Shown here one piece after another: positions 526 to 53,923 of a DNA stretch of 57,856 bases (position 1 is its first letter; every line of letters begins with the position of its first letter). The stretch lies in assembly GCA_016286345.1 (NCBI GenBank), contig JAEESL010000004.1:1-57856 (forward strand), read 5' to 3'. Under the pieces are notes generated by a model. The model saw only the letters and a list, made by a program, of their open reading frames with translations, ran no database searches and had not been told where the DNA came from. A program made the position numbers and the translations under genes. The stretch is from Dehalococcoidales bacterium (GTDB taxonomy: Bacteria; Chloroflexota; Dehalococcoidia; Dehalococcoidales; UBA1222).

Positions 526-1086
526 ATGACAAGTGTCATCGTCATTATTGCAATAAACTTATTTATCTTTATATGCGCACAGTTTGTTCCTGACAATATC
601 ATTTATGATCTGTGTGTCAGCCGTGCATCATTTACTCATCCATGGCAGTTTATTACCAGTATGTTCCTGCATACGGAGTTTTTTCATATTCTGGGCAATA
701 TGTATACTCTTTATTTTTTCGGAACGGCAATATGCAGGTTACTTGATGAAAAGAAATTCCTTCTCATTTATTTCATAGGCGGTATTGCAGGCGGCATTTT
801 CTTTGCTTTGCTTGCTCCTCACTACAGCATTGCTCTCGGTGCCAGCGGTGCTATCTTTGCCGTAGGTGCGGCTCTGGCGGTACTGCAGCCTAAGATGAAG
901 GTCATGGTATTCCCGATTCCTGTCCAGATGCCGTTATGGGTCGCATTGCTGGGTGGCGGTATACTGATTTCTTTTCTGATGTCCAATATTGCCTGGCAGG
1001 CACATCTCGGCGGTGCTGTGGCAGGGGCTTTGTTTGGTTTGTATTACAGGAAAAAGTATCTTAAATCTTTCAGATATTACAATTAA
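526..1086 (+). CDS. rhomboid family intramembrane serine protease
   Basis: PWQFITSMFLH, HILGNM, catalytic GASG and AHLGG motifs; hydrophobic; GAGG RBS upstream. Confidence 0.95.
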   Translation: MTSVIVIIAINLFIFICAQFVPDNIIYDLCVSRASFTHPWQFITSMFLHTEFFHILGNMYTLYFFGTAICRLLDEKKFLLIYFIGGIAGGIFFALLAPHYSIALGASGAIFAVGAALAVLQPKMKVMVFPIPVQMPLWVALLGGGILISFLMSNIAWQAHLGGAVAGALFGLYYRKKYLKSFRYYN

Positions 1087-1088
1087 CA

Positions 1089-1116
1089 AAAAAGGCGAAC
1101 TGCAGTTCGCCTTTTT
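1089..1116. terminator. bidirectional intrinsic terminator
   Basis: Perfect palindrome AAAAAGGCGAACTGCAGTTCGCCTTTTT between the convergent rhomboid gene and ccm operon. Confidence 0.85.
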
Positions 1117-1136: not shown

Positions 1137-1274
1137 CTATTTTTCAATTTTGTCTTTGAGGGTTTCGATTTCCTGTCGGTTTTTCTTCTGTTTTCGCATT
1201 ATATCAAAAACAAGAACACATAAACCGATCCAGATAAGTGTGTAAGCAGCGAATAAATATCCTAAATTATCCAT
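1137..1274 (-). CDS. ccmD: heme exporter protein CcmD (45 aa, not in the ORF track)
   Basis: Manual translation MDNLGYLFAAYTLIWIGLCVLVFDIMRKQKKNRQEIETLKDKIEK*; ATG overlaps the ccmC stop (TAATG); one TM with YLFAAY plus charged tail. Confidence 0.85.
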   Translation of the reverse strand: MDNLGYLFAAYTLIWIGLCVLVFDIMRKQKKNRQEIETLKDKIEK

Positions 1275-1951
1275 TAGTCATTCTCCTTTAAAAGTCTTTT
1301 CTTCATTCTTGCAATTTCATATTCATCTGTTCTCAGATCGTAGTAGAGGAACATGAAAAGGAAATAGACTGCAAACATAGCGGCAATTGAAAGGAGTAGT
1401 GTAAGCAGCATCGTTCCATGAAGGCCGTCGTTGAAGATCATTGCTTTTGGATGGGTGGTAGGTGCCAGCTGGATGCTAAGGGCGACGATGGGAATATCAA
1501 TGAAACCGACAATGCCGATGATTGAACCGAATCTGTATTTTTTCTCTTCTTCAGAGATATATGATCTGATTATAAAGTAAGCAAGATAGATCAGCCACAT
1601 TACAAGTGAACTTGTAAGCCTGGCGTCCCATGTCCACCAAACGCCCCAGATAGGCTTTGCCCAGATCATTCCGGTAAGAAGGATCAATGTGGCAAATACA
1701 AGGCCTATTTTTGCGGATGATTCAGCAATAAAATCATATTTGGGGTTACGGGTCTTCAGATAAACTATTCCAAAGACAAATGTTACAAAGAATGAGAAAA
1801 ATGCATTCCATGCAACCGGGACGTGGAAATAGAAGATACGTTGAATATTGCCCATAGTGGCTTCTGTAGGACAAACAATAAAAACCATGACAAGCGCAAC
1901 AATAATCATTACTGCGCTTATACCGAATGCAATAAGTGTTCTACGTCGCAT
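1274..1951 (-). CDS. ccmC: heme exporter protein CcmC
   Basis: RIFYFHVP and Trp-rich WAKPIWGVWWTWDARLT motif; operon context. Confidence 0.95.
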   Translation of the reverse strand: MRRRTLIAFGISAVMIIVALVMVFIVCPTEATMGNIQRIFYFHVPVAWNAFFSFFVTFVFGIVYLKTRNPKYDFIAESSAKIGLVFATLILLTGMIWAKPIWGVWWTWDARLTSSLVMWLIYLAYFIIRSYISEEEKKYRFGSIIGIVGFIDIPIVALSIQLAPTTHPKAMIFNDGLHGTMLLTLLLSIAAMFAVYFLFMFLYYDLRTDEYEIARMKKRLLKEND

Positions 1952-1960
1952 AACTCCTCC

Positions 1961-2632
1961 TTATTCTTCAACAATATATCTAAATAAAATAAACGGGACT
2001 GTAACAAAGATGATGTCAAATGCCACAATAATCAGCATGTATTGTGTGATATCACTGAATTTGCCTCCGTCGAGAATGACGGATGTCGCAGATACGGCGG
2101 CGATAATCAGTGGTACCACTGTGGGAAGAAACAGAATAGGGAGTACCATTTCCCGTGCTCTCGTATTGACTGCAAGCGCTGAGAAAAGTATTCCTATCGA
2201 AACAAATCCGATCGTGGCAAGTAAAGTGACAAGAATAACAATGGGATTGATAACTGATACATTATATAAAAGTGTAAAAACAGGGAAGACAACGATTTCT
2301 ATGATCAGCATGAAAACAATGCTGCCTATTGCCTTGCCCAGGAAAATCGCATCCCTGCTTACAGGGCTTGCAAGAAGACCTTCCATACAGTTATCTTCTT
2401 TTTCAGAAATAAAGGCTCTGTTGATGGATAAGACACCTGAAAACGCAAACGCCACCCATAACATACCGGGAGCAAGCGAAAGAATTGTTTTCTGATCAGC
2501 TGTGAAAGCAAAATGGAAAATGATAAGTGTCAGAACAGCAAACAGCAGAACAGAGGAAATAATCTCTCTGTTTCTAAGTTCGGAAATAACATCCTTTTTT
2601 GCTATTGCGAAGACTGCTTTCCAGTAGTTCAT
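1961..2632 (-). CDS. ccmB: heme exporter permease CcmB
   Basis: FISEKEDNCMEGL (FxxE/DxxDGxLE-like) and LPILFLP motifs, multi-TM, overlaps ccmA. Confidence 0.93.
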   Translation of the reverse strand: MNYWKAVFAIAKKDVISELRNREIISSVLLFAVLTLIIFHFAFTADQKTILSLAPGMLWVAFAFSGVLSINRAFISEKEDNCMEGLLASPVSRDAIFLGKAIGSIVFMLIIEIVVFPVFTLLYNVSVINPIVILVTLLATIGFVSIGILFSALAVNTRAREMVLPILFLPTVVPLIIAAVSATSVILDGGKFSDITQYMLIIVAFDIIFVTVPFILFRYIVEE

Positions 2633-3339
2633 TTTTTGCCTTCGTTGACTTCACTGTATATTTTTTCCAGATCACTCTCTGTGATGCCGTTATTATCCTG
2701 TCGGTGAACAACAGATCCCTTTTTCATGATTATAAATTCATCACAGATTTTTACAGTGCTCTGAAAATTATGACTTGTAAAAATAACTGTTCTTTCTGTA
2801 TCGTCTGTTCTGACGATTTCCCATAACAGCTCCATGCTGTCACGGTCCAGTCCTGTTTCCGGTTCATCCAGCAAAAGAATAGACGGCTGATGTAAAAGAG
2901 CTCTCGCCAGACTCAGCCGCTGTGTCATACCGCGCGAATATGTTCCGACACGATCGTTCCTTCTGTCATACAGATTTACTTTTTTCAGTATCTCATCGAT
3001 CCGTTTGTCCGGATCCTTTAAATTGTAAAGGCTGGAATAGAACTTCAGATTCTCCTTTGCGGACAGATTTGAATACAGGTAACTGTTATGAGACAGTAAA
3101 CCAATCTTGCTTCGCAGTAAAGTGTCATCTTCTTTCAGTTCTTTGCCGTCGATGAAGACTTTACCTTCAGTAGGGTGCATGATGGTTGACAGTACTCTGA
3201 TAAGCGTACTTTTTCCGGCTCCGTTATGACCAAGGATTGCAAGTATTCTGTTTTTGTCTACGGATAGATTGACGTTTTTAAGGGCTTTAAAATCCCCAAA
3301 CCGTTTTGTTAAATCCTTACACTCTATCGCATATGACAT
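2629..3339 (-). CDS. ccmA: heme exporter ATP-binding protein CcmA
   Basis: Walker A GHNGAGKST, signature YSRGMTQR, Walker B LLLDEP; next to ccmB. Confidence 0.92.
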   Translation of the reverse strand: MSYAIECKDLTKRFGDFKALKNVNLSVDKNRILAILGHNGAGKSTLIRVLSTIMHPTEGKVFIDGKELKEDDTLLRSKIGLLSHNSYLYSNLSAKENLKFYSSLYNLKDPDKRIDEILKKVNLYDRRNDRVGTYSRGMTQRLSLARALLHQPSILLLDEPETGLDRDSMELLWEIVRTDDTERTVIFTSHNFQSTVKICDEFIIMKKGSVVHRQDNNGITESDLEKIYSEVNEGKK

Positions 3340-3354
3340 CTGAATAATGTTGCC

Positions 3355-5310
3355 TTATCTTTCCTTGGAGAATGCAACCAATCCGCCCAGGACAAGAATG
3401 ATACCGCCGATCCAGATCCACAGTACTCCGGGATTGACTTTAACTGAGATAGTGGAAGTATTATCATCCCAGTCATCCAAACTGATGTATATATCATCAA
3501 TGAGTGTGGATCTGATTCCTATCTCTGATACCCACTGGGCCTGGCTTCTGTAGAATGATCTGTGAGGAGTTATTCTGCCGACGTATTTGCCATTCTTGGT
3601 GACATCATAGAATGCGTAATAGTTTATCTTGTTACCCATTCCTCCGCCTTCAGGTATCTGATCCATCGATAACTGCATTCCATCAAAGGTTATTTCATAA
3701 TTGCTGACTGTAAGTGATTCACCTATCGCCAGAGTATTTGATTCGCTTTCAGGGAAAACAGTTGATGCCATGATACCGAGAGCCATAATGGCAATACCAA
3801 TGTGTGCAAGATAAGAACCATATCGCGGTCTGTTTGTCTTGAATAAATTGCCAAGGGCTTCAAAGACGGTCTTATTTGTACCGCTGGCAGCCGTTTTGAT
3901 ATCCATGATCCATTTCCAGATGGTGCTGGCAATCATATAGAAGAATGCAAATCCGCTTACAATTACATACCATTTTGTCCAGCCAATGAAAGCCATGACA
4001 ACAGATGCGGCAATTGCTACCAGAACAGGGACCAGAATATCAAGTTTCATTTCTTTTGCAGATTTCTTCTTGAAATCAAACATAATGCCGATTCCGGCGA
4101 TTACAGCCAGTATTACAAATAAAGGTACATTTACTGTCTGGAAGAACGCCTTGGTCTGTTCAATTCGTCTGCCTGTCAGGATTTCTGAGAAGAAAGGATA
4201 CATTGTGCCAACCCAGGTAGCGAATGTTGAAAGAGAAAGAAGTACATTTACCAAAAGGAATGAAGTATCTGAAGAGAAGAAACTGTCTTCTTCTGATGTT
4301 GTCTTATATAGTTTTTTGTTTCTGATAAGTAAAGTCAGGGAAACACCAAGTGAAATAATCAGGAATACAAGGAAAGCAGGACCCATTGCGGTCGATCCGA
4401 ATGAGTGAACTGATTCCAGAATGTCGCTTCTGGAAAGAAATGCGCCAAACATTGTCATATTGAATGCAAAAATGATAAGGACATAATTCCAGATCTTGAA
4501 GGAATTGCGTCTCTTTTCCATGAGAGATGAATGGAGGAAAGCAGTGGCAAGCAGCCATGGCATCAGACCGCTGTTCTCAACAGGATCCCAGGCCCAGTAG
4601 CCACCCCAGCCGAGTTCCACATAAGCCCACCACATACCGAGAATGTTACCGGCTCCGAGGAATAACCATCCAAGCAGAGCCCATGGACGTGCTTCTGTAA
4701 TCCAAAGACTGTCAGTTCTTTTCTGTATAAGAGAAGAGACTGCAAGAGCAAATGGTACTGCAAGCAGTACATAACCTATCAACAATAGGGGAGGATGCAG
4801 GATCATTGCTATGTTTTCAAGGAGAGGGTTAAGACCGTGACCATTGGTGTACGGCATAGCTGCGGGAGTGAACGGGTTAGCTGAAAAAATAAGTACAATA
4901 AACAAAATATTGACCAGGAGCATTACAGGCATTGCCTGGGGAACTAATTCTTTAAGCCCCGGTCTCTTGATCTTAATAAGAAGGAAACTCAACAGACTGC
5001 ATATCCATGCCCATATAAGAAGTGCACCTGCATTACCTGCCCACAGAGCTGTAATCTTGTAAATAAGGGCTGTTTCATTTGATGTGTATTGATATACATA
5101 TTGCAGGGTATAATTGTCTGCGATAAGTGCTATCAGAAGCAGAAGCTCAGAGAGTGTTAAAATCGCAAAGATGGTTTTTATGCCAAATTCCGCATATTTG
5201 TTCAGTACAGTGGTATCCTTCTTTTTGTTCCATGACATAAAATAAAGAACACCTGTCATTACTGACACTATAAGTGCAATGACCAGCAGCAGATTTCCTA
5301 ATGTACTCAT
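3355..5310 (-). CDS. ccmF: cytochrome c heme lyase CcmF
   Basis: GLNPLL, HPP, WGGYWAWDPVEN and SVHSF motifs. Confidence 0.97.
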   Translation of the reverse strand: MSTLGNLLLVIALIVSVMTGVLYFMSWNKKKDTTVLNKYAEFGIKTIFAILTLSELLLLIALIADNYTLQYVYQYTSNETALIYKITALWAGNAGALLIWAWICSLLSFLLIKIKRPGLKELVPQAMPVMLLVNILFIVLIFSANPFTPAAMPYTNGHGLNPLLENIAMILHPPLLLIGYVLLAVPFALAVSSLIQKRTDSLWITEARPWALLGWLFLGAGNILGMWWAYVELGWGGYWAWDPVENSGLMPWLLATAFLHSSLMEKRRNSFKIWNYVLIIFAFNMTMFGAFLSRSDILESVHSFGSTAMGPAFLVFLIISLGVSLTLLIRNKKLYKTTSEEDSFFSSDTSFLLVNVLLSLSTFATWVGTMYPFFSEILTGRRIEQTKAFFQTVNVPLFVILAVIAGIGIMFDFKKKSAKEMKLDILVPVLVAIAASVVMAFIGWTKWYVIVSGFAFFYMIASTIWKWIMDIKTAASGTNKTVFEALGNLFKTNRPRYGSYLAHIGIAIMALGIMASTVFPESESNTLAIGESLTVSNYEITFDGMQLSMDQIPEGGGMGNKINYYAFYDVTKNGKYVGRITPHRSFYRSQAQWVSEIGIRSTLIDDIYISLDDWDDNTSTISVKVNPGVLWIWIGGIILVLGGLVAFSKER

Positions 5311-5322
5311 TGATTTATTCTC

Positions 5323-5709
5323 CTAAACTGCAGGTTCATATTTAGATGAGCATTTGACGATTAATTCATTTGCAATGAAAGTTGCTGTATTAGGATCGTA
5401 CTTTCCTGCGGCAACAACTTCATTGCCGATTTTGAATGTATCAGGAATTGAGCCTTCATAATAAGCATTAAGAACCAAGGATTCATCATTCATATCAGTG
5501 AGGACAAATGCCACTGAATTCTTATCTCTTTCTTCAGACAAAAGGGTTCCATTGACTTTGGTGTTATGCATCTGCTGTTCAACAGTCTGTGACAAAAAAT
5601 CACCGACTTCATAATAATATGCATTATCACCCATAAAATAAGCATATCCGAGTACTGCAATTGCAAACGCAACTGCTACTGATGAAATTACAATCGTTTT
5701 TGATTTCAT
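5323..5709 (-). CDS. ccmE: heme chaperone CcmE, CxxxY (System I*) variant
   Basis: N-terminal TM, YEGSIPDTFK and KCSSKY motif instead of HxxxY. Confidence 0.93.
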   Translation of the reverse strand: MKSKTIVISSVAVAFAIAVLGYAYFMGDNAYYYEVGDFLSQTVEQQMHNTKVNGTLLSEERDKNSVAFVLTDMNDESLVLNAYYEGSIPDTFKIGNEVVAAGKYDPNTATFIANELIVKCSSKYEPAV

Positions 5710-5735
5710 TTCTTTGTCCTCACAATCATTTTGTC

Positions 5736-5744
5736 ATTATATCA
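5736..5744 (-). promoter_or_regulatory. extended -10 (TGnTATAAT) upstream of ccmE
   Basis: Minus strand reads TGATATAAT about 27 nt before the ccmE ATG, followed by a GAGGA RBS. Confidence 0.5.
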
Positions 5745-5753
5745 CATTAATAT

Positions 5754-6206
5754 TTACACGTGTTCAATCTGGTGTTCTTTGATATCGTCCAGAAGCTCAT
5801 ACAACAGTGTATACAGCTGACCGGCTTTTTCCGGAGATAAGCTGATACAATTTTTCATGGAATCCGGGATGGTTGCGGCTTTCTCCCGCATTTCCCATCC
5901 TTTTGATGTCAGTCTAATTTTAACAATACGTTCGTCTGATAACTCCCGTGATTTGGTGATGTAACCATTTGATTCCATTCTTTTCAGCAATGGTGTCAGA
6001 GTACTGTTATTTAGATACAACTTTTCTCCAAGATCACCGACGGTTATATCATCTTTTTCCCAAAGAACCATGAAGACAATGTATTCTGTATAGGTTAGTC
6101 CGAGTGGTTTGAATGCCGGGTTATACAGATTTACAACCTGTCGTGCAGCTGCATAAAGAGGAAAACATAACTGATTTTCCAGCTTAAGCTTTAGATACTG
6201 ATCCAT
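5754..6206 (-). CDS. MarR family regulator, OhrR-like
   Basis: LENQLCFPLY with the N-terminal Cys typical of OhrR; TLTPLLKRME...DER winged helix. Confidence 0.88.
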   Translation of the reverse strand: MDQYLKLKLENQLCFPLYAAARQVVNLYNPAFKPLGLTYTEYIVFMVLWEKDDITVGDLGEKLYLNNSTLTPLLKRMESNGYITKSRELSDERIVKIRLTSKGWEMREKAATIPDSMKNCISLSPEKAGQLYTLLYELLDDIKEHQIEHV

Positions 6207-6235
6207 TCGAAATCTCCGAAATTATATTCATAAAT

Positions 6236-6274
6236 ATACGTTTATAATATATACGTATGTATCAAATACGTCAA
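6236..6274 (-). promoter_or_regulatory. sigma70-type promoter of the MarR gene with three phased ATACGT repeats
   Basis: -35 TTGACG (6274-6269), 17 nt spacer, -10 TATATT (6251-6246); ATACGT at 6236, 6251 and 6266. Confidence 0.55.
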
Positions 6275-6320
6275 GACTTAAATCATTGAATCGGGTGATT
6301 CACTGAGACCTGATGGCAAT

Positions 6321-6352
6321 AAAAAAACCGCTAGTGGTGTAGCGGTTTTTTT
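6321..6352 (-). terminator. intrinsic terminator after the small multiheme cytochrome gene
   Basis: AAAAAAACCGCTA-GTGGTG-TAGCGGTTTTTTT hairpin with A/T tails. Confidence 0.85.
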
Positions 6353-6376
6353 ATCAATATTCAATTGTAATGATTA

Positions 6377-6853
6377 TTAGATATTTGAAATATCGGTCAA
6401 ATCATGGCACATAGTGCACATATCATTACTATATGCCTTGTGGTTATCAGGAAGTGCACCAGCAACAGCACCGGTATGACACTTTCCTGCAAGTGATACA
6501 TCGAAGTTTGAGTGATCAGGAACAACTTTGTTGGGAAGTGCTTCGATGTTAGTTACATCATGACACAACACACACAGGTCAGTAGTAAAGTCTTTATGGC
6601 TTTCTGGAACAGCACTGGCCGATGAACCATCGTGGCATGCAGCACAAAGATCGCCGGAAGTGTATGAGGCGTGGCTGGGTGTTGGTTCAGGTCCGGATGT
6701 AGGAGGATTGGTTGTGGGAGGAGTTGTTGTAGGTCCCTGTGATGTAGGAGGATTGGTTGTGGGAGGAGTGGAAGTTTTCTTACCGCTACATGCAACAGAG
6801 AACAGTGAAAGAACCAATACTGTCACAGCAATGACTGTCAAAAGCTTTTTCAT
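6377..6853 (-). CDS. lipoprotein multiheme cytochrome c (3 CxxCH plus 1 AxxCH) with Pro/Thr stalk
   Basis: Lipobox SVA-C; PPTTNPPTS repeats; CAACH, CVLCH, AGKCH, CTMCH. Confidence 0.88.
   Translation of the reverse strand: MKKLLTVIAVTVLVLSLFSVACSGKKTSTPPTTNPPTSQGPTTTPPTTNPPTSGPEPTPSHASYTSGDLCAACHDGSSASAVPESHKDFTTDLCVLCHDVTNIEALPNKVVPDHSNFDVSLAGKCHTGAVAGALPDNHKAYSNDMCTMCHDLTDISNI
6696..6769. repeat. 29-bp exact direct repeat, two copies at 45-bp period, encoding the TPPTTNPPTS linker
   Basis: GATGTAGGAGGATTGGTTGTGGGAGGAGT at 6696-6724 and 6741-6769. Confidence 0.85.
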
Positions 6854-7016
6854 TTTGTCCGTACATTCATCCTTTCTTTAGATTTTACAATTTTCTATTC
6901 TAACAAACTCTTATCGTGTAGACAAGTACAGCTATTTTTTAAACAATCTTATTATTCCATCAATGATGAGTATTAGATATTACCAATGTCACATTTTTCC
7001 AGAACAGCAGGCAAAT

Positions 7017-7044
7017 AAAAAGGCCCTTCAGACGAAGGGCCTTT
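7017..7044 (-). terminator. intrinsic terminator after the dodecaheme cytochrome gene
   Basis: AAAAAGGCCCTTC-AGAC-GAAGGGCCTTT; U-tract on the minus strand. Confidence 0.85.
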
Positions 7045-7064
7045 AATAACATATGCTTTAGATA

Positions 7065-8072
7065 TTAGATGTTTGTAATATCGTTAATATCGTGGCAGGC
7101 GAAGCACATATCGTTGTTGTATGCCTTGTGATTGTCAGGCATTGCATTTGCAGCTGATCCATCGTGACAAGTTGCACAGATTGCAGGATCAGTGAAGGTT
7201 GAGTGATCAGGAACTGTCTGAGGATTTTCGATATCGTTTACATCGTGACAATTGAAACACTGATCAACAGAGTAGCCTGCATGATTCTCAGGGAGTGCAT
7301 TTGCAGCTTTGCCGTTGTGGCAGGTTGCACAGGTTGAAGGATCAGTGAATGCAGTGTGATCAGGCAGTGTCTTAGGATTCTCGATATCTTTAATATCATG
7401 GCAGGCGAAGCACATATCAGTTGCGAAAGCTGAGTGATCAGGGGTAGTGGGGAGAGCGCCTGCGGCTGAGCCGTCATGACATGTTGCACAGATTGCGGGA
7501 TTAGTGAATCCGGAGTGATCAGGAGTGGATTTAGGATTCTTGATGTCGTTCATATCATGGCAGTTGAAACACTTTGATTTGTCATATCCGGCATGATCTG
7601 CAGGAAGGGCATGAGCATAGCTGCCGTTGTGACATACTTCACAGTTGGCTGCTGAAGTGAATTTTGAATGATCAGGTGTAACTGCACTGTTAGGAAGTTT
7701 TTTGATGTCCTTGGTGTCATGACAAATCAGACACTGAGCTGCAGTGTACTTGCTGTGATCTGCAGGAAGTGCTGATGCTTGTTTTCCATCATGGCAGTAA
7801 GCACAGCCGTCACCAGTGGTCATCTGGGTGTGATCATACATACCGGAAGGATTATCAATTGTATGACACTGTCCGCAGTCCTGGTTGGTATACTGTGAGT
7901 GATCAAGACCGCTCATAGCGGTAGCACCGGCATGACATGCATTGCAGTCTCTGAAGAGCCATTCAGGGCTGTGAGGACCACCGTTCATCGATTTGTTGCC
8001 ACAAGCAGTGGCGCCCAAAGCCAATGCTGCGATAAGGAGTAAACCGAAAATTACTTTTTTGTTAGTTTTCAT
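7065..8072 (-). CDS. lipoprotein dodecaheme cytochrome c built from six tandem di-heme repeats
   Basis: Lipobox ATA-C; 12 CxxCH motifs, each preceded 8-9 residues upstream by another His (PH/DH/NH); AGGAG RBS. Confidence 0.93.
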   Translation of the reverse strand: MKTNKKVIFGLLLIAALALGATACGNKSMNGGPHSPEWLFRDCNACHAGATAMSGLDHSQYTNQDCGQCHTIDNPSGMYDHTQMTTGDGCAYCHDGKQASALPADHSKYTAAQCLICHDTKDIKKLPNSAVTPDHSKFTSAANCEVCHNGSYAHALPADHAGYDKSKCFNCHDMNDIKNPKSTPDHSGFTNPAICATCHDGSAAGALPTTPDHSAFATDMCFACHDIKDIENPKTLPDHTAFTDPSTCATCHNGKAANALPENHAGYSVDQCFNCHDVNDIENPQTVPDHSTFTDPAICATCHDGSAANAMPDNHKAYNNDMCFACHDINDITNI

Positions 8073-8084
8073 ATTTGTATCTCC

Positions 8085-8951
8085 TTATCTTCCTCTCAAT
8101 TTGTCATACCAAACCAAGAAGTGATGTTTGGTATCTTCCAGGGTCATATCAAATGTCCACCAGGACCAGAATGAAGCCCAGTGACCAAGAATTACGACGA
8201 TCATTACGTGAACACAGGTGTAGAAGATAATGAAAATACCGAAATAGTCATGGAGAATGGTAGCAATACCATCAATGATAGCCGGCATGCTAATGAGATG
8301 TGCACCAAACTTGACTGCACCGGATAAGAAACAAACAACACCGATTAAGAAGTAAGGTACAGCTGCAGCTTTCTGGCTGGCCATGTATTTGTCGGGTTCT
8401 TCCCAGTAATTTCTGTAAGTATATTTGCCGATGAAACCTTTGATAACTTCGTGCCATTTAGGAACGAGATACCAGATGTTCCAGTTTGCAATGTAGTCGC
8501 ATACGAATAACGCACCGCCAAAACAAATCAGACATACTGCAAAGTAATGGAAGTTAAGAGGTGCGACTGTTGCTCCTGCAGTTCGGGCAAACGGACCAAT
8601 CATACCGAAGCCGAGTGAAAGGCCGAGTATTGCACCGGATACTGCTGCAGCGAAGATGCCGAATGCAGTGTACCAGTGTTCAATAAATGAACCTATGCCA
8701 TGTCGAATCACTACGCCTTTCTCAATTCTTGACTGTTTCTTTAATCTGCCTCGCATGAAGCCCAGAATACATCCAAGAACGAATATGCCGATTAAGACAT
8801 ACTGTCCAATCTTGTTGTCCCAAAGAGAAACATCTTTGAGAACGGTGTAGGATGCAACAATGCCACCTGCCAGGGCAGCCAAAAGAACAATCGTCAGGAT
8901 AATAGCCTGTGGTTTAAAACGTGATGCATAACGTTTAAGTGTTTTGATCAT
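8085..8951 (-). CDS. membrane di-heme cytochrome b (FdnI/HyaC-like) with two extra N-terminal TMs
   Basis: RH...EHW, H92/H135/H234/H248 (last pair 14 apart as in FdnI), KYMASQK resembling FdnI KYNAGQK; AAGGAG RBS. Confidence 0.8.
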   Translation of the reverse strand: MIKTLKRYASRFKPQAIILTIVLLAALAGGIVASYTVLKDVSLWDNKIGQYVLIGIFVLGCILGFMRGRLKKQSRIEKGVVIRHGIGSFIEHWYTAFGIFAAAVSGAILGLSLGFGMIGPFARTAGATVAPLNFHYFAVCLICFGGALFVCDYIANWNIWYLVPKWHEVIKGFIGKYTYRNYWEEPDKYMASQKAAAVPYFLIGVVCFLSGAVKFGAHLISMPAIIDGIATILHDYFGIFIIFYTCVHVMIVVILGHWASFWSWWTFDMTLEDTKHHFLVWYDKLRGR

Positions 8952-9203
8952 AAACCATCAATCTCCTTCGATTATTTTTTTGCCTGTTGTAAACCAAAAT
9001 CAATCGTGCAGAAATATTTGCACAATTTTGAACAATGATATTATGAAAATCACCCCAATGTCAATATTTTTAACATAGTTTTAGGCACAAAAATGCTTTT
9101 ATTTTTTTGATAACATTTATGACATTTTTTTCAGTAAATTTCATTTTTTTATAGATTTTTTTTGGACGGTTTATTGAACAGATTATTGAAGTTATAATAA
9201 TAA

Positions 9204-9830
9204 TTGATGTTATTACCTAATGATGTAAAAATACCGGCTATTCTCATGGCTGCCGGAATGAGTACCAGAATGGGAAGAAACAAACTGCTTCTTCCTTTTA
9301 ATGGACATACAGTTATTGCTGAGACTTGCGATAGGCTTCTGGCATCTCATGTAAGTGAAGTCATTGTCGTTCTGGGCAATGATCACGATAAGGTACTGAA
9401 CCAGGTCGCAGATAAAGGTGTCCAAATGGTCCTTAATCCTAATTTTGCGCGGGGTATGATGACTTCGCTGCAGACCGGTATCAGTTATCTTCCTGAGAAT
9501 ACCAGGTTCTTTATGGTTGCTTTGGGAGATCAGCCTCTTGTTTCTGTTGGAACTTATAATGCACTCATTGGTGCTACTGCCTATACCAGCAGGAAGATAT
9601 TTGTCCCTGTGTATGGAAGACAGCGTGGTAATCCTATTATTCTGTCTGCTGATTATATCCAGGAAATAATGGGTATGGATGGCGATATCGGAGGCCGTGA
9701 GATCCTGAGACGGTATCCCGGAGATATACAGGAAGTTGCAACCACTAATGAAGGTGTAATCATTAATATGAATACACCTGAAGAATATGCCCGCCGAAAA
9801 GCCGAATTTGATAAAAAGATGGGTTTATGA
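9204..9830 (+). CDS. MobA/MocA-like nucleotidyltransferase (molybdenum cofactor cytidylyltransferase-like)
   Basis: MAAGMSTRMGRNKLLL, LGDQP, GNP, GDIGGR, NMNTPEEY motifs. Confidence 0.85.
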   Translation: MMLLPNDVKIPAILMAAGMSTRMGRNKLLLPFNGHTVIAETCDRLLASHVSEVIVVLGNDHDKVLNQVADKGVQMVLNPNFARGMMTSLQTGISYLPENTRFFMVALGDQPLVSVGTYNALIGATAYTSRKIFVPVYGRQRGNPIILSADYIQEIMGMDGDIGGREILRRYPGDIQEVATTNEGVIINMNTPEEYARRKAEFDKKMGL

Positions 9831-16707: not shown

Positions 16708-19416
16708 ATGAACACTAATAAGAAATCTAACAGACTTATTTACCTGGCAACCGTTTTATTAGTCCTGATTTCCGTATTAGGTACATTCACCGGCTGCAGT
16801 AAGGAAACCGAATCCAATGAGATCAAATATAAGACCTTTGATGATTTTGCAGGTACATCCATCGGCAGTTCTCTCGGTGATGATTACGAATCACTGATAT
16901 TCGATACATTTCATGATATCACTCATAAAGAATACACTGACTTTCATGCCGCTCTGGTAGGTCTCGAACACAGACAGATTTCAGCAATGCTGACCCAGAA
17001 GCCCTGTGCACTGGCAGTCGCCGCAGAAAACAGTGAACTGGCAGTATTTCCTATTGTTGTTGATACAGAAAACACAAGTTTTCTTTTCAAATATGGAAGT
17101 GAACTGACTGCTCCTGTTTCAGCAATAATGAAACAAATGGATGAAGACGGGACGATTGCAGCTCTTCAGGAAAAGTGGCTTGATTTCGAAGGTGAGGATC
17201 CTGTTATAGATCCCTCTTTGAGAGACACTTCAGGAAGGACCGGCGGAAAGATCAGATTCCTTATTGACATTGCCGGAATTGTTCCTTTCGGTTACTTCGA
17301 TGCAGACGGACAGCCTACCGGTTATGAAGTTGAACTATTCCTGATGATCGCACAGAAATTAAATATGGATGTCGATATCAAGAGCATGGATCTTGTATCT
17401 TCCATGCAGGCACTTAAACAGGGAAAGGCCGATATGCTCGGCAGTAACATCCCTTATACAGCTGAGCGTGCTGAAGAATTTGATTTCTCATATCCCGACT
17501 GGGTGAATGATATTGTCCTCCTCTGCCAGAAAGCAGATATTATGGAGGTCGAAGAAGAGGAACATAAAAACTTCTTCCAAAGCATTGCAGACAGTTTTTA
17601 CAAGACATTCATCAGAGATGCCAGATGGAAACTTGTACTCAATGGTTTGCTCATTACATTACTGATCACATTCCTTTCCGGTATTTTCGGAACTGTTGTC
17701 GGATTTTTCTGGGCGATTGGTTTCAGAGCAAAGAAAAAATGGATTTCAACACCTCTGAAGGTCATATCAAAGTTTCTGTCCGGAGTGCCGAGTATCGTTA
17801 TACTTCTGCTGACTTATTATGTCGTATTTAAATCGATTGATATTGCTCCGCTCGCAGTAAGCATAATTGCCTTTACGGTCATATTCGGCAATAAGATTGC
17901 AGGGATGATCGACGGCGGTATTGCATCAGTCGGAAAAGGGCAGTGGGAAGCTGCAACAGCTCTTGGCCTGACCAGAAAACAGACCTATAACAAAGTCGTA
18001 TTTCCTCAGGTGATCCGTGCGATACTTCCGTCATACAAGGAAGCTTTCGGCGGCTTGCTTGAATCAACTTCCATTGTGGGTTACATCGCAATTGCAGACC
18101 TTACCAAAGCGGTTGATATCATCAGAAGCAGAACGTATGAAGCTTTCTTCCCGTTAATTGCTGATGCAGCGATATATTTCATGGTTTCATGGCTGATCAT
18201 ATTTATCTTTACTAAGATTGAGATCAAAGTTGATGTTTATAACAGGAAGCGTGCCCTCACACGCGGTGTTAATAAAAACGTAACGATCAAAAAAGGTATT
18301 TCCAATGTCGAAGGTGAAAAAGGCGAGGAAATCATTCGTCTTGAACATATAAAGAAAGTGTATCCGAAGGTGACTCCTCTTGTTGATGTCAATGGTATGA
18401 TCAAGAGGGGAGACGTTATTGCGATAGTCGGCCCTTCAGGCACAGGAAAGTCAACACTGCTTCGATTGATCAACCGTATGGAAGACCCGACCGAGGGTAA
18501 GATATATGCATTTGGACAGGATACCGATTCCGAAGATTACGATCTTGTTGAACTTCACAAAAATATGGGAATGGTCTTCCAGCATTTCAATCTGTTCACT
18601 CATCTGAACGTAATTGAAAATGTAATGCTTGCTCCTATGGTGGTCAATCACATGTCGGCACAGGAGGCATATGAAGCAGGTATGGGCCTGTTGAAAACAC
18701 TTGGTGTTGCGGAAAAGGCTTTGGTTTATCCTGATGAACTGTCAGGCGGCCAGATGCAGAGAGTCGCAATTGCAAGAGCAGTTGCCATGAATCCCCAGGT
18801 ACTTCTTTTTGATGAGCCGACAAGTGCACTCGACCCTGCGATGGTGGATGAAGTTATTGCAAGTATGAAGATTCTTGCAAAACGTGGATTGACAATGCTT
18901 GTCGTAACGCATGAAATGCAGCTTGCACGTGATATTTCCACAAGACTCTTCTACATGGATAAAGGTGAGATCTATGAAGAAGGTCCGACTGAGGAGATGT
19001 TTGAGAATGCCAAGCGTCACAGAACTCTTGCTTTCATCAACAGAATGAGAGTGCTTGAACTCACCATCTTCAGTGCCGATTATGACTTCCTGGCAATGAA
19101 CAAAAGGATCACTGTTTTCTGCGACAGACATGAGATCCCTCATGCCAGAAATGAACAGATACTCAGATGCTTTGAAGAAATCGTTGCAGTCAACATCGTT
19201 CCTAAACTTGAAACAGGTTCAAAGCTTCATGTATTCATCGATTATCAGAGTGACAGAAAAGAGCTCTCCATGGTCTTCAACTGGCGGGGTGCAAGATTTG
19301 AGCCTATGGTCGACGGTGATGAAATCTCGGTTATGATCATCAGAAAGAGTATTACACGTGACGATTATCGTTATGATGATGCTGACACCAGAAATATTTT
19401 CAAAGTCGTACTTTAA
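16708..19416 (+). CDS. single-chain polar amino-acid ABC transporter (substrate-binding domains, permease, ATPase) with extra C-terminal domain
   Basis: Lipobox-like FTG-C; PFGY..G.PTGYEVEL SBP motif; GQWEAATALG EAA loop; GPSGTGKST, LSGGQMQR, FDEPTSALDP; about 120 aa tail. Confidence 0.9.
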   Translation: MNTNKKSNRLIYLATVLLVLISVLGTFTGCSKETESNEIKYKTFDDFAGTSIGSSLGDDYESLIFDTFHDITHKEYTDFHAALVGLEHRQISAMLTQKPCALAVAAENSELAVFPIVVDTENTSFLFKYGSELTAPVSAIMKQMDEDGTIAALQEKWLDFEGEDPVIDPSLRDTSGRTGGKIRFLIDIAGIVPFGYFDADGQPTGYEVELFLMIAQKLNMDVDIKSMDLVSSMQALKQGKADMLGSNIPYTAERAEEFDFSYPDWVNDIVLLCQKADIMEVEEEEHKNFFQSIADSFYKTFIRDARWKLVLNGLLITLLITFLSGIFGTVVGFFWAIGFRAKKKWISTPLKVISKFLSGVPSIVILLLTYYVVFKSIDIAPLAVSIIAFTVIFGNKIAGMIDGGIASVGKGQWEAATALGLTRKQTYNKVVFPQVIRAILPSYKEAFGGLLESTSIVGYIAIADLTKAVDIIRSRTYEAFFPLIADAAIYFMVSWLIIFIFTKIEIKVDVYNRKRALTRGVNKNVTIKKGISNVEGEKGEEIIRLEHIKKVYPKVTPLVDVNGMIKRGDVIAIVGPSGTGKSTLLRLINRMEDPTEGKIYAFGQDTDSEDYDLVELHKNMGMVFQHFNLFTHLNVIENVMLAPMVVNHMSAQEAYEAGMGLLKTLGVAEKALVYPDELSGGQMQRVAIARAVAMNPQVLLFDEPTSALDPAMVDEVIASMKILAKRGLTMLVVTHEMQLARDISTRLFYMDKGEIYEEGPTEEMFENAKRHRTLAFINRMRVLELTIFSADYDFLAMNKRITVFCDRHEIPHARNEQILRCFEEIVAVNIVPKLETGSKLHVFIDYQSDRKELSMVFNWRGARFEPMVDGDEISVMIIRKSITRDDYRYDDADTRNIFKVVL

Positions 19417-51316: not shown

Positions 51317-53923
51317 TTATAACGATGCCTGATTTACTATATGATCCAGTTTCTTTTCCGGATAGTAATTGTATGTGAAAACCGGTACCACAGAATAGTG
51401 CTTCTCAGATGTTTTCATTACCTTTTCAGAGTCGTATGTGACGTTGTACCCCAGATCATCATACTCCATTGTTCTGACAAGTCCGCTCTCATCAAATACA
51501 TTAATGACATTGCCGTAATCATCATAACTGAACCTGACTGAATGATTTTTGTTGTCTTTTTTCGTCACAAGATGTCCATCGGAATCATATTCCATATCGA
51601 TGCGGTATCCTTCGGAGTCTTCTATTTTTATGATTTTGTTCTTCTCATTGTATTCAAAACAGGTTTCTTTTCCGTAATTATCTGTGAATCCGATCAGTCG
51701 GTTTGCTTCATCGAATGAATAAGAATAACTGTTTCCCTGATTATCGGATTTTCCAATACAGTTTCCGCTTGAATCATAGGAATACTCCTGGTCACCGATA
51801 ACAATGGGTTCATTTATGGCATCGTAGATTATTCTCATATGATCGCCGTCAAAAGAATCCACTGATATTGTCAGACCTTTCATATTCGTTACGGTGGCGG
51901 TACCTTTTTCTGAATCAATAATCTTTATTGTGGACATATCATCAAAACGCTGGAACAGGACTTCTTTTCTTGCAGAGTAGGTGATCTTTTCAATGACAGG
52001 TGCAAGGCCTCGTCTGTCGTATACAATGTCATACAGAACGTTATACGGGGAGTCGCTGATGGATGTAAGTAATCCGTCTGATGAATAATTGAAGAATATA
52101 TTCTTATTCTCTGTATCCGTGATACATGTCAGATTATCGAGATTATCATATTCAAACTTAAACATTGTTCCGTCAGACAGTTCCATTGAAATACATCTGT
52201 TTCTGTCATCATATTTGAAAAGGAATTTCCTGCCGGCTGTATCCATGATGTCCTTTATTTTCAGTCCGTCATATGTGAGTGTCAGAGCATTTCCATAAGC
52301 ATCGGAAACGTATTCAAGGTAATAATCGGCGGTATTGGTAAAGGATGAATACTTGTAATACATGTTATCAACGCCACGGTACACAAATGAATCATCACCC
52401 TGTACCAGTTCTCCGGTCTCATGCATGATAGGCAGAAGTACACGGGGCTTCTCATTGCTTATCTGTCTTGTGGTAAAACTGCTTGAATCTCCATCCCCGC
52501 TTGTCACTGTGAATGTATCGGCGCTGGATCCTCTGAATACTGCGGAAGAGTAATTGAAATGCCATCCGTTTCCGAACATGCCTGATTCGCTTGCCCGGTT
52601 TGTATTGAAGCTCAGACATGGTCTGATCGTAAGCCCGGACATATGTGTTTCAAGCATCTTGTAGCGGATGAACAAACCAAGATCTGTAGTGTTTATCTGG
52701 CATGACAGATGATGTGACAGCTTATGCTTCAGATACAGTGTCTGTTTGTTGAACTCGGGCGATGATGCACTGTTGGGAGTAAGGGGTTCGACTGACATGG
52801 ATACAAGAGCCTTCAGAGATTGCTTCAGTGAAGTCAGATTGGTATCGGTGCTGTACTTGTCAGGTCTGTTCTGTGAGGCGGCTTCATCTATTGCTTTCTG
52901 TATTGAAGCTATTTCATCTTCTTTATTTACAAATACGACCTTCTTCGGCTTGTATTCGATATCTTCAGGCTTGTCCTGATATTCGACTTTCGTTCCGCAG
53001 ATAGGACAGAATGCATATATATTCTTCAGTGCTGAATGACAATTGGAGCAGAAAATCACATTTTCATCATCAATAAATGCTTCCGGATTATTGTTGATTA
53101 TTACAGGAGCAGTTTCCGCTTTTACTGTCTGAATTGTCGGGTTCGGTGTTTCATTGAACTTACTTGTTTCAGATATTGGTGATGCTGATATAAATTCTTT
53201 TACTGTTTCCGGTTCTGATTCCACGGATGTTTCAGAAATATATTCAGTTTCTGTTCCTGTTTCCAGTACCGGTTCGTTGTATACAGGCTCAACAACTTCA
53301 GATTTGGTGTCTTCTACTGTTTCCTCTGTTTCAGAATATACCGGAATATCTTCAATCGGTGGTTCTTCTGTATATGATGATTCTTCAGCCTGTTCAATAT
53401 CAGTTGTACTTATTGAATTCTCTGAAATCTGTTCATCAGCAACAACAGAAACTGATGAATCACTGGTTTTGGGAATAATCGGAATGATCACTTCGGATTC
53501 AATAGGTTCGCGTACAGGCTGCTGATCACTGCCCTGGGTTTTTGCCTCTATTACATAAGTCTGGGTTTTCTCTGGCTGTGTTATTTCAGCTCCGCACCAG
53601 TGGCAGAACAGGGCAGACGGTCTGATCTTCTTTGAACAATTTTGACATTCGATCAGGTTTTCATCATTGATCACGGTTCCGCACCATCGGCAGAAAGTTG
53701 CGGTCGGTTTGATCTTTTCTGAACAATTGGGACAGTTTATCAGTGTTTCCAGATCAGTTCCGCAGAATCTGCAGAACTTTGCAGTTACAGATATTTTTTT
53801 AAGACAGACGGGACAATCTTTTTCCTGTGATTTGCCACAGAAATGACAGAACTTCGCATCAGAATTAATGCTGTTTCCGCAGTAAATGCAATCTTTCTCT
53901 GTTTCAGAATTATTCATAGCCAT
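51317..53923 (-). CDS. multi-zinc-ribbon protein fused to an RHS/YD-repeat region
   Basis: Four CxxC-x10-CxxCG units, acidic linker, fifth zinc ribbon, GMFGNGWHFNY, many YDxxGN/R repeats. Confidence 0.8.
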   Translation of the reverse strand: MAMNNSETEKDCIYCGNSINSDAKFCHFCGKSQEKDCPVCLKKISVTAKFCRFCGTDLETLINCPNCSEKIKPTATFCRWCGTVINDENLIECQNCSKKIRPSALFCHWCGAEITQPEKTQTYVIEAKTQGSDQQPVREPIESEVIIPIIPKTSDSSVSVVADEQISENSISTTDIEQAEESSYTEEPPIEDIPVYSETEETVEDTKSEVVEPVYNEPVLETGTETEYISETSVESEPETVKEFISASPISETSKFNETPNPTIQTVKAETAPVIINNNPEAFIDDENVIFCSNCHSALKNIYAFCPICGTKVEYQDKPEDIEYKPKKVVFVNKEDEIASIQKAIDEAASQNRPDKYSTDTNLTSLKQSLKALVSMSVEPLTPNSASSPEFNKQTLYLKHKLSHHLSCQINTTDLGLFIRYKMLETHMSGLTIRPCLSFNTNRASESGMFGNGWHFNYSSAVFRGSSADTFTVTSGDGDSSSFTTRQISNEKPRVLLPIMHETGELVQGDDSFVYRGVDNMYYKYSSFTNTADYYLEYVSDAYGNALTLTYDGLKIKDIMDTAGRKFLFKYDDRNRCISMELSDGTMFKFEYDNLDNLTCITDTENKNIFFNYSSDGLLTSISDSPYNVLYDIVYDRRGLAPVIEKITYSARKEVLFQRFDDMSTIKIIDSEKGTATVTNMKGLTISVDSFDGDHMRIIYDAINEPIVIGDQEYSYDSSGNCIGKSDNQGNSYSYSFDEANRLIGFTDNYGKETCFEYNEKNKIIKIEDSEGYRIDMEYDSDGHLVTKKDNKNHSVRFSYDDYGNVINVFDESGLVRTMEYDDLGYNVTYDSEKVMKTSEKHYSVVPVFTYNYYPEKKLDHIVNQASL

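Follow-up and report, generated by a model that had tools for sequence, protein, structure and literature searches.

Which partner does a cytochrome b serve when no enzyme is encoded beside it? This question is raised by the window studied here, a 57,856-nucleotide (nt) stretch of a Dehalococcoidales genome (contig JAEESL010000004.1 of genome G000, which measures 1.46 Mb and is 91% complete with a contamination estimate of 2.46%). Near its start the minus strand carries a cytochrome b of 288 amino acids (aa), two multihaem lipoproteins and a set of genes for cytochrome c maturation (Ccm), and no catalytic subunit adjoins the cytochrome b in the window. A preliminary description of this DNA had named these minus-strand genes and noted the lack of an adjacent catalytic subunit, and our analysis agrees with it on both counts, every gene lying at the position first given. 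It had also read the locus as a self-contained, split CbcL-like path from a membrane carrier to a surface haem wire. We give about even credence to a different reading, in which the cytochrome b and the lipoproteins form a two-part 'bc' coupling module with its own Ccm machinery, a split CbcL-like arrangement that would serve enzymes held on the outer face of the membrane. The genes of the locus are as follows.

8085..8951, minus strand: cytochrome b, 288 aa, a six-helix dihaem protein of the FdnI family according to family profile and model
7065..8072, minus strand: 12-haem lipoprotein, 335 aa, with 12 CxxCH motifs and the Pfam matches Paired_CXXCH_1, Cytochrome_C7 and Cytochrom_c3_2
6377..6853, minus strand: stalked 3+1-haem lipoprotein, 158 aa, with a Pro/Thr-rich linker, three CxxCH motifs and AGKCH
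5754..6206, minus strand: MarR-family, OhrR-like regulator, 44 nt upstream of ccmE
5323..5709, minus strand: CcmE, PF03100 at E 1.4e-17, with the C-terminal motif CSSKY
3355..5310, minus strand: CcmF haem lyase, matching PF16327, PF01578 and TIGR00353
2629..3339, minus strand: CcmA-like ABC ATPase, matching PF00005 and reaching 125.7 bits against TIGR01189, whose cut-off is 131.6
1961..2632, minus strand: CcmB, PF03379 at E 4.8e-34
1274..1951, minus strand: CcmC, PF01578, and TIGR01191 at E 1.9e-39
1137..1274, minus strand: single-helix, CcmD-like open reading frame (ORF), 45 aa, overlapping the ccmC stop and assigned by position only

The cytochrome b and its haem lipoproteins

Taken alone, the cytochrome b sequence matched nothing in Pfam, NCBIfam or the PDB sequences. 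An exhaustive HMMER search of 1.84 billion proteins returned 69 representatives at E up to 0.001, and in an alignment of 32 members the residues H84, H92, W93, G106, H135, G211, K214, H234 and H248 were invariant. Histidines account for five of these positions (H84, H92, H135, H234 and H248), so that the preliminary description, which had spoken of an FdnI-type protein with four His, stood in the family and fell short in the count. The family was recovered by profile only: the 32-member profile matched chain C of the E. coli FdnI structure (1kqf_C) over residues 18-211 with E 9e-19, and 30 of the 32 members matched PF01292 singly. In the profile match H92, H135, H234 and H248 align with H18, H57, H155 and H169 of FdnI, which we take to be its haem ligands, and a conserved KY..SQK loop aligns with 'GKYNAGQK' of FdnI, presumably the quinone site in the FdnGHI structure. 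The AlphaFold2 (AF2) model of the cytochrome b, with a predicted local distance difference test (pLDDT) score of 91.3, has six long helices, and Foldseek placed 1kqf_C at rank 1 (probability 1.00, template modelling score 0.67 on the target, E 0.068) and HyaC at rank 13. The histidines follow the FdnI register, with one on helix I, one on helix II and two on helix IV spaced 14 residues apart, and the predicted haem ligands are H92 and H248 for the inner haem and H135 and H234 for the outer haem. On the profile and model evidence, the b-type protein is a member of the FdnI family.

FdnI (PDB 1KQF chain C) is the best match in both profile and fold, with four His in register; the cytochrome b family has also kept the helix II-III loop and a C-terminal motif. 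The two differ in their partners, which are FdnG and FdnH in one case and a c-type lipoprotein in the other, and the protein in the window has two extra N-terminal helices that mark a narrow subfamily. In an even draw of 301 genomes from the class, 64 contained a match at E up to 1e-10, and only five (G000, G002, G018, G051 and G102) matched the profile over its full length, with E values of about 1e-84 or lower; in the others the match begins at about profile position 60-80. A further difference from FdnI is the pair R83-H84, invariant or nearly so in the 32 sequences. It lies eight residues ahead of the first haem ligand, in a short hairpin predicted to face the cytoplasm; FdnI has no counterpart of the pair, which could belong to the carrier site.

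Only five ORFs in the 1.46-Mb genome carry at least three CxxCH motifs, namely the pair in the window, two NrfA proteins and one octahaem cytochrome, and the clustering of multihaem genes at this locus is therefore far beyond chance. The 12-haem gene starts 12 nt downstream of the cytochrome b, as first described, a stop codon and a signal peptide separating the two ORFs, and a gap of 211 nt lies between the 12-haem and the 3+1-haem genes. The 12-haem protein is built from six dihaem units in tandem, each about 51 aa long. Its signal peptide ends at Cys24, a conserved dihaem domain forms the N-terminal part, and the dihaem repeats come after it. A conserved His stands behind every CxxCH, and the 25 His in total would be enough for bis-His ligation. 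No tandem repeat with a period of about 51 aa was reported in the DNA of the gene, indicating that the repeats have diverged at the DNA level.

The 158-aa protein consists of a lipoprotein signal, a Pro/Thr-rich linker of about 40 aa and two dihaem units. It aligned with the 12-haem repeats in several registers (50% identity over 105 aa, E 2e-33) and, by this alignment, is a true paralogue of the 12-haem protein, as had been proposed. The lipobox ends of the two proteins (...GATAC and ...FSVAC) fit a strict, PROSITE-type lipobox pattern, and Lgt (PF01790) is present in the genome. At residues 123-127 of the 3+1-haem protein the third haem site reads AGKCH, having lost one Cys relative to CATCH in the paralogue; the Ccm machinery might attach a single-thioether haem there.

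Structural comparison of the 12-haem protein gave less. Its AF2 model was unusable (mean pLDDT 50.1), and a sequence search of solved structures had a reaction-centre cytochrome subunit as its best match (E 0.0058) and yielded no close relative. The protein atlas returned just generic c3/c7 clusters, below 0.9, and the match to TIGR04257, the trihaem c7 'nanowire' family, reached 29.1 bits, under the 40-bit cut-off. The dodecahaem 'nanowire' cytochromes of the GSU1996 type from Geobacter also gather 12 haems from tandem small haem domains; however, those are trihaem c7 domains, whereas the protein described here is lipid-anchored and made of dihaem units of about 51 aa.

Pairing and maturation genes in related genomes

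The labels of related loci point to a Dehalococcoidales-like host, in line with the Dehalococcoidia-like one that the preliminary description had considered: 27 of the 30 were labelled Dehalococcoidia, Dehalococcoidales or Dehalococcoidaceae, one Chloroflexi and two Clostridiales, and eight of these loci had ORF tables identical to those of loci from genomes in the family of the window. We compared a panel of 61 genomes of the order, in which the cytochrome b was present in 21 and not matched in 40. Besides the genome of the window, it was found in all 15 other genomes of the same family and in 5 of 45 further families in the order.

Sequence downstream is available for 33 distinct cytochrome b loci, of which 31 have a CxxCH-containing ORF with a Cys-ending signal peptide that starts between -65 and +46 nt from the cytochrome b, the gaps being mostly 9-12 nt; the strict lipobox pattern was passed by 26 of the 33. 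Both exceptions to the pairing are the most distant loci (L041 and L042), and in L041 a pyridine-nucleotide-disulphide oxidoreductase gene comes next after the cytochrome b. In addition, ccmE/F lies within 4.5 kb downstream in 15 of the 20 loci with enough sequence; the preliminary description had suggested a search for such a neighbourhood. Fused b-c relatives were found neither in a set of 19 proteins of 135-702 aa nor among proteins of 703-2005 aa, and each of these negatives is weak evidence.

Most relatives have a smaller lipoprotein with about four haems, in which an N-terminal dihaem domain is followed by a Pro/Thr stalk of about 40-60 aa and a distal dihaem domain. The N-terminal domain, with the order P-H, F, CxxCH and then a CX4-5CH variant site, is invariant in the aligned lipoproteins (13/13). 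In the genus of the window, haem repeats take the place of the stalk, and the number of CxxCH motifs is 9 in G001, 12 in the window and 1-4 elsewhere.

The preliminary description had also suggested predicting the complex of the cytochrome b and the 12-haem protein. For this the cytochrome b was combined with the 24-88 segment of the lipoprotein in the presence of four haems, which gave a median score of 0.44, compared with 0.00 for the best control; at least 32% of contacts agreed between runs, and the partner pLDDT was at least 49. In the calibration of these scores 58 of 80 solved complexes and 2 of 110 mismatched pairs attained the mark, and the range of 0.60 or under contained 7 of the 80 solved complexes and both mismatches. 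The models lend weak support to a contact between the cytochrome b and the N-terminal domain of the lipoprotein.

This arrangement recalls CbcL of Geobacter sulfurreducens, which a preprint describes as an inner-membrane bc-cytochrome and menaquinol oxidase with a b part of the FdnI/Hyd/Phs kind and a multihaem c part (bioRxiv 10.1101/2022.08.31.506072). Both combine a dihaem b part with a multihaem c part and neither includes an FeS, flavin, NiFe or molybdopterin subunit. In contrast to the fused CbcL, the two parts are separate genes in the window; the c part of CbcL has 9 haems, compared to 12 in the lipoprotein here (about four in relatives); and the b part in the window has its two extra N-terminal helices, the likeness drawn here being one of architecture. 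With FdnI family membership and a conserved pairing in hand and the contact weakly supported, 'split CbcL-like' is a fair description of the pair.

CcmA, B, C, E and F (System I) are all present at the locus, so of the ccmEFABCD operon originally described ccmEFABC is upheld; the 45-aa ORF had no Pfam match and is therefore CcmD by position only. CcmE ends in CSSKY (CxxxY type), which replaces HxxxY, and CcmH (PF03918) was found in none of the five genomes searched (0/5). This combination fits the variant known from archaea and Desulfovibrio. The MarR regulator, which the preliminary description had listed with the operon, gave an OhrR-like match of 146 bits, under the cut-off of 200. It was seen at no related locus and was rejected as a member of the conserved module.

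Of the 61 genomes of the order, 32 gave a CcmF match, namely 19 of the 21 with the cytochrome b and 13 of the 40 without it. Judged by these gene counts, cytochromes are thus not rare in the order Dehalococcoidales. The organohalide respiration complex of Dehalococcoides mccartyi, which belongs to the same bacterial class and shares with the present case outer-face catalytic subunits in many paralogues, is described as lacking quinones and cytochromes (PMC10772276). The preliminary description had on such grounds called cytochromes in a Dehalococcoidia-like host striking; the CcmF count weakens that judgement, and in family f10 none of the 10 sampled genomes, most of them single-contig, matches the cytochrome b. 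Two genomes, G051 and G058, have the cytochrome b paired with c-type proteins and no CcmF found; in G051 a nearby ORF resembles ResB by eye only. In this last genome, a 17-CxxCH protein and a small NapC-like ORF (L069, contig C24, 7409-8875, minus strand) converge with the gene of a distant cytochrome b homologue.

Candidate partner enzymes, proposed carrier and direction of flow

The words 'self-contained' and 'orphan' in the preliminary description did not survive a search of the whole genome, in which eight lipid-anchored, outer-face redox enzymes lie elsewhere, without other evident partner. Two are PF02335 NrfA lipoproteins (C96 and C109), with CxxCK and four CxxCH; one is an octahaem cytochrome (C87) with a lipobox and a C-terminal helix. 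The other five are molybdoenzymes whose operons (two on C81 and one each on C58, C1 and C9) encode a 2Fe-2S small subunit, a MoCoBD large subunit and a flavin adenine dinucleotide (FAD) subunit, the small subunits carrying a signal for twin-arginine translocation (Tat) together with a lipobox. A sixth Tat-lipobox protein of the genome is a solute-binding protein. Members of the NrfH/NapC family were not found in G000, G001 or G003.

The five operons resemble E. coli PaoABC, an aldehyde oxidoreductase exported by Tat (PMC4273604), in encoding exported three-subunit enzymes with 2Fe-2S, Mo and FAD. They differ from it in that the small subunit is also lipid-anchored, in the expansion of the set to five operons and in the lack of a cytochrome subunit in these operons. 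Xanthine-dehydrogenase-family enzymes with cytochrome c subunits exist, and to our knowledge the physiological acceptor of PaoABC is unsettled even in E. coli.

Across the panel, Tat/lipobox small subunits occur in 17 of the 21 genomes with the cytochrome b and in none of the 40 without it, counted among the matches listed (55 further matches were unlisted). Eleven genomes that lack the cytochrome b do have xanthine-dehydrogenase-type enzymes, with short small subunits that align from about residue 70-80, and in G054 the match covers the signal part alone. Outside the family both features occur only in G018, G031 and G033, which provide the sole independent support for the co-occurrence. The complete 1.5-Mb genome of G018 has 42 Tat-type small-subunit matches among those listed, together with S-L-FAD operons arranged in strings in which one helper gene recurs (L071-L076), an expansion reminiscent of the dehalogenase gene families of Dehalococcoides. 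Reductive dehalogenases were found in G002 and G003 and not in G000 (91% complete), G001 or G018.

These observations can be assembled into a path for G000. In it the cytochrome b would pass electrons through the cytoplasmic membrane, linking a site for a lipophilic carrier, probably a naphthoquinone, at the cytoplasmic side with a haem close to the outer face. The N-terminal dihaem domain of the 12-haem lipoprotein would dock onto the outer face of the cytochrome b, and electrons would then move along and away from the membrane over the bis-His haem chain of this lipoprotein and over the stalked 3+1-haem paralogue. At the far end the partners would most likely be lipoproteins on the same outer face and not minerals; candidates in G000 are the two NrfA proteins without an NrfH, the octahaem cytochrome and the five Tat-exported, PaoABC-like molybdenum hydroxylases. 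The direction that we favour for this genome, in which NuoB and NuoD are present, is outward, from complex I to the carrier, the cytochrome b, the haem lipoproteins and NrfA, so that the module would take the job of NrfH, and the molybdoenzymes may feed or draw on the same haem pool. NrfH and NrfBCD act as quinol dehydrogenase modules for NrfA; the likeness of the bc module to them would be one of proposed role only and in G000 only, as the families are unrelated and the membrane haems here are b-type. NrfA occurs in 4 of the 61 genomes, all of them with the cytochrome b; as it is present in 4 and missing from 17 of the 21 genomes with the module, it cannot be the general partner and was rejected as such.

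Several other results weigh against this picture. The co-occurrence with Tat-type molybdoenzymes comes for the most part from one family, with three others added, and the independent events are consequently few. A molybdoenzyme operon lies within 10 kb of the cytochrome b at only 1 of 30 loci, and in G018 none of the 10 hydroxylase operons, in six stretches, is adjoined by a c-type cytochrome gene. G051 and G058 carry the cytochrome b without CcmF and without listed Tat-type molybdoenzymes. The analysis brought to light neither a physical nor an expression link with the candidate partners, and the complex score is weak by the predictor's own calibration. Outward flow would also be non-conserving with an FdnI-type carrier site on the cytoplasmic side, as has been argued for CbcL (bioRxiv 10.1101/2022.08.31.506072).

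The carrier adds a further difficulty. The search for quinone synthesis genes that the preliminary description had called for turned up no menaquinone pathway in five genomes, one of them 100% complete: MenB was found in none of the five (0/5), and MenD and MqnA/D gave nothing above cut-off (0/5). Two weak MenA-like prenyltransferases are the only such trace of carrier synthesis, which leaves the carrier unproven. Quinols are implied in the family by the cytochrome bd quinol oxidase of sister genera, found in 4 of the 61 genomes (G004, G008, G009 and G011, all of this family) and not in G000. We infer that the carrier is a scavenged naphthoquinone.

With these points counted, a split CbcL-like module joining the membrane to a pool of outer-face lipoprotein enzymes is still the best-supported picture, though we would call the chances of its being right and wrong equal. 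The data establish which genes are present, the families to which they belong, the conserved pairing and the co-occurrence; that the haems are loaded, that the two parts dock, and the choice of carrier, flow direction and all partners are what we infer. Two alternatives deserve comparison with it. In one, which we consider unlikely, the genes would form a dedicated membrane-to-surface conduit for extracellular transfer to minerals, humics, electrodes or a syntrophic partner, with the 12-haem protein as a surface wire. Unlike Geobacter, the cell is presumably of a type without a periplasm bounded by an outer membrane, and its lipid-anchored cytochromes would then be exposed. Replacement of the stalk by haem repeats in this genus looks like selection for reach; however, about four haems and a non-conducting stalk, the condition in most relatives, fit a shuttle tethered among membrane-anchored proteins at least as readily as a wire. 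The b + c pair does occur without an adjacent enzyme, even among housekeeping genes (the distant pair at L034), and it is present in G051 and G058 without NrfA or, among the matches listed, Tat-type molybdoenzymes. CbcL, which according to its preprint serves extracellular acceptors, has the same architecture. Against these arguments, nothing points to an acceptor outside the cell, and the eight outer-face redox lipoproteins of the genome need a partner. As to habitat, the 24 listed metatranscriptome runs, from 12 studies, contain 12-26% of the sampled words and are labelled gut, bovine, sheep and anaerobic digester, labels that say nothing on minerals. The more probable role of the module is to link the membrane to enzymes anchored outside it, not to act as a stand-alone wire to minerals or partner cells.

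The second alternative keeps the partners of this coupling module and reverses the flow, in the style of formate dehydrogenase-N. Exported hydroxylases would oxidise aldehydes or heterocycles outside the cell and pass electrons to the haem lipoproteins, as a stand-in for FdnH, and on through the cytochrome b to a quinone at the cytoplasmic side, building proton motive force by a redox loop. The FdnI fold, the ligand register and the loop aligned with 'GKYNAGQK' (presumably a quinone site) are all kept, Tat-type hydroxylases accompany the cytochrome b (17/21 vs 0/40 among the matches listed), and a MocA-like gene adjoins the cytochrome b in the window. The members with cytochrome bd (G004, G008, G009 and G011) would then have a complete chain to oxygen. 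Precedents are AldFGH of acetic acid bacteria and NicAB, in which enzymes of the xanthine dehydrogenase family deliver electrons through cytochrome c to the respiratory chain. Inward flow would moreover conserve energy where outward flow would not, following the argument made for CbcL. In G000, however, no quinol oxidase other than the cytochrome b was found, neither cytochrome bd nor NrfH, so that electrons in the pool would exit only back through the cytochrome b; in addition, no quinone pathway was found, and the hydroxylase operons retain their FAD subunit with no cytochrome gene alongside. On balance we regard inward flow as improbable.

That the cytochrome b is instead the ordinary anchor of a distant formate dehydrogenase or uptake hydrogenase, with the neighbouring cytochromes c unrelated, would suit its place in the FdnI/HyaC family and the name 'cytochrome b subunit of formate dehydrogenase' that one source gives to relatives, but is most improbable, given that the sole PF00384 enzyme (C61, 732 aa) has no twin-arginine signal and adjoins MobA only, that the small subunit of the sole NiFe hydrogenase (C97) has no Tat motif, and that 31 of 33 loci have a c-type lipoprotein gene next after the cytochrome b, the usual distance being 9-12 nt.

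Surroundings of the locus and meaning of the module

The remaining features around the coupling module are listed below; promoter and terminator calls are consensus matches.

9035..9064, minus strand: promoter-like site that precedes the cytochrome b and fits the consensus at 11 of 12 positions, such sites being no more numerous in this region than in shuffles
7019..7044, minus strand: terminator-like hairpin of 11 pairs and then a T-run, directly 3' of the 12-haem gene
1089..1116, no strand assigned: hairpin resembling a two-way terminator, in the gap where the CcmD-like ORF and the rhomboid gene converge
9204..9830, plus strand: MocA-like molybdenum cofactor cytidylyltransferase, TIGR03310 at 175.1 bits against a cut-off of 186.45, divergent from the cytochrome b
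526..1086, plus strand: rhomboid protease, PF01694, convergent on the ccm operon

The terminator-like hairpin right behind the 12-haem gene suggests that this gene and the cytochrome b form a two-gene unit, and the promoter and hairpin layout as a whole suggests three units, namely the cytochrome b with the 12-haem gene, the 3+1-haem gene alone and marR with ccm. RNA-library contigs from four studies match the cytochrome genes at 95% identity or more, although DNA carry-over is possible in such libraries; two of them extend from the 12-haem gene into the cytochrome b, which is not proof of transcription. These contigs leave 6958-7051 and parts of the cytochrome b uncovered, and we infer nothing from the gaps.

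The flanking genes encode the MocA-like cytidylyltransferase, a radical-SAM protein (RlmN by eye only) and the rhomboid protease. The product type of the MocA-like gene is the cofactor of xanthine-dehydrogenase-family enzymes, and no such gene was found beside the cytochrome b at the other related loci examined. Rhomboid matches follow ccmC in L015, L017, L024, L028, L030, L037 and L039 and on contig C28, making the rhomboid gene a conserved neighbour of ccmC, for which no role in cytochrome maturation is known. Contig C28 of the same genome (C28:2-5427) holds a second syntenic locus, ccmF-A-B-C ... rhomboid, cut by the contig start, whose proteins are 58-80% identical to those of the window. 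Either this second locus is a segmental paralogue, or the contig comes from a related organism in the same bin, in which case one of the two NrfA contigs could be foreign too. Farther along the window, positions 16708-19416 (plus strand) encode a 902-aa single chain with family-3 solute-binding, permease and ABC ATPase domains, a whole amino-acid-type ABC importer in one polypeptide, and positions 51317-53923 (minus strand) encode an 868-aa protein with several zinc-ribbon domains and RHS repeats.

A literature search that left supplementary gene tables outside its range found no description of a b + lipoprotein module in Dehalococcoidia. Cultured Dehalococcoides respire without quinones or cytochromes, and energy conservation in their uncultured relatives from gut, digester and sediment is almost unknown. 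In this setting the module of one b-type and one or two c-type proteins with the Ccm machinery is a concrete and expressible object, present in every sampled genome of the family. The lipoproteins form a natural series from a flexible Pro/Thr stalk to a growing chain of haem repeats (about 4, 9 and 12 haems) that bears on the evolution of haem wires. We suggest tentatively, and with more doubt than for the coupling module itself, that the module would be the shared coupling site of an undescribed Dehalococcoidales respiration, in which Tat-exported, lipid-anchored molybdenum hydroxylases, expanded in the manner of dehalogenases, might act on plant-derived aromatics and heterocycles as substrate-specific donors or terminal reductases wired by stalked or wire-like multihaem lipoproteins. 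More generally, the module may explain how exported enzymes without an obvious redox partner, such as NrfA without NrfH and the PaoABC-like hydroxylases, are linked to the membrane.

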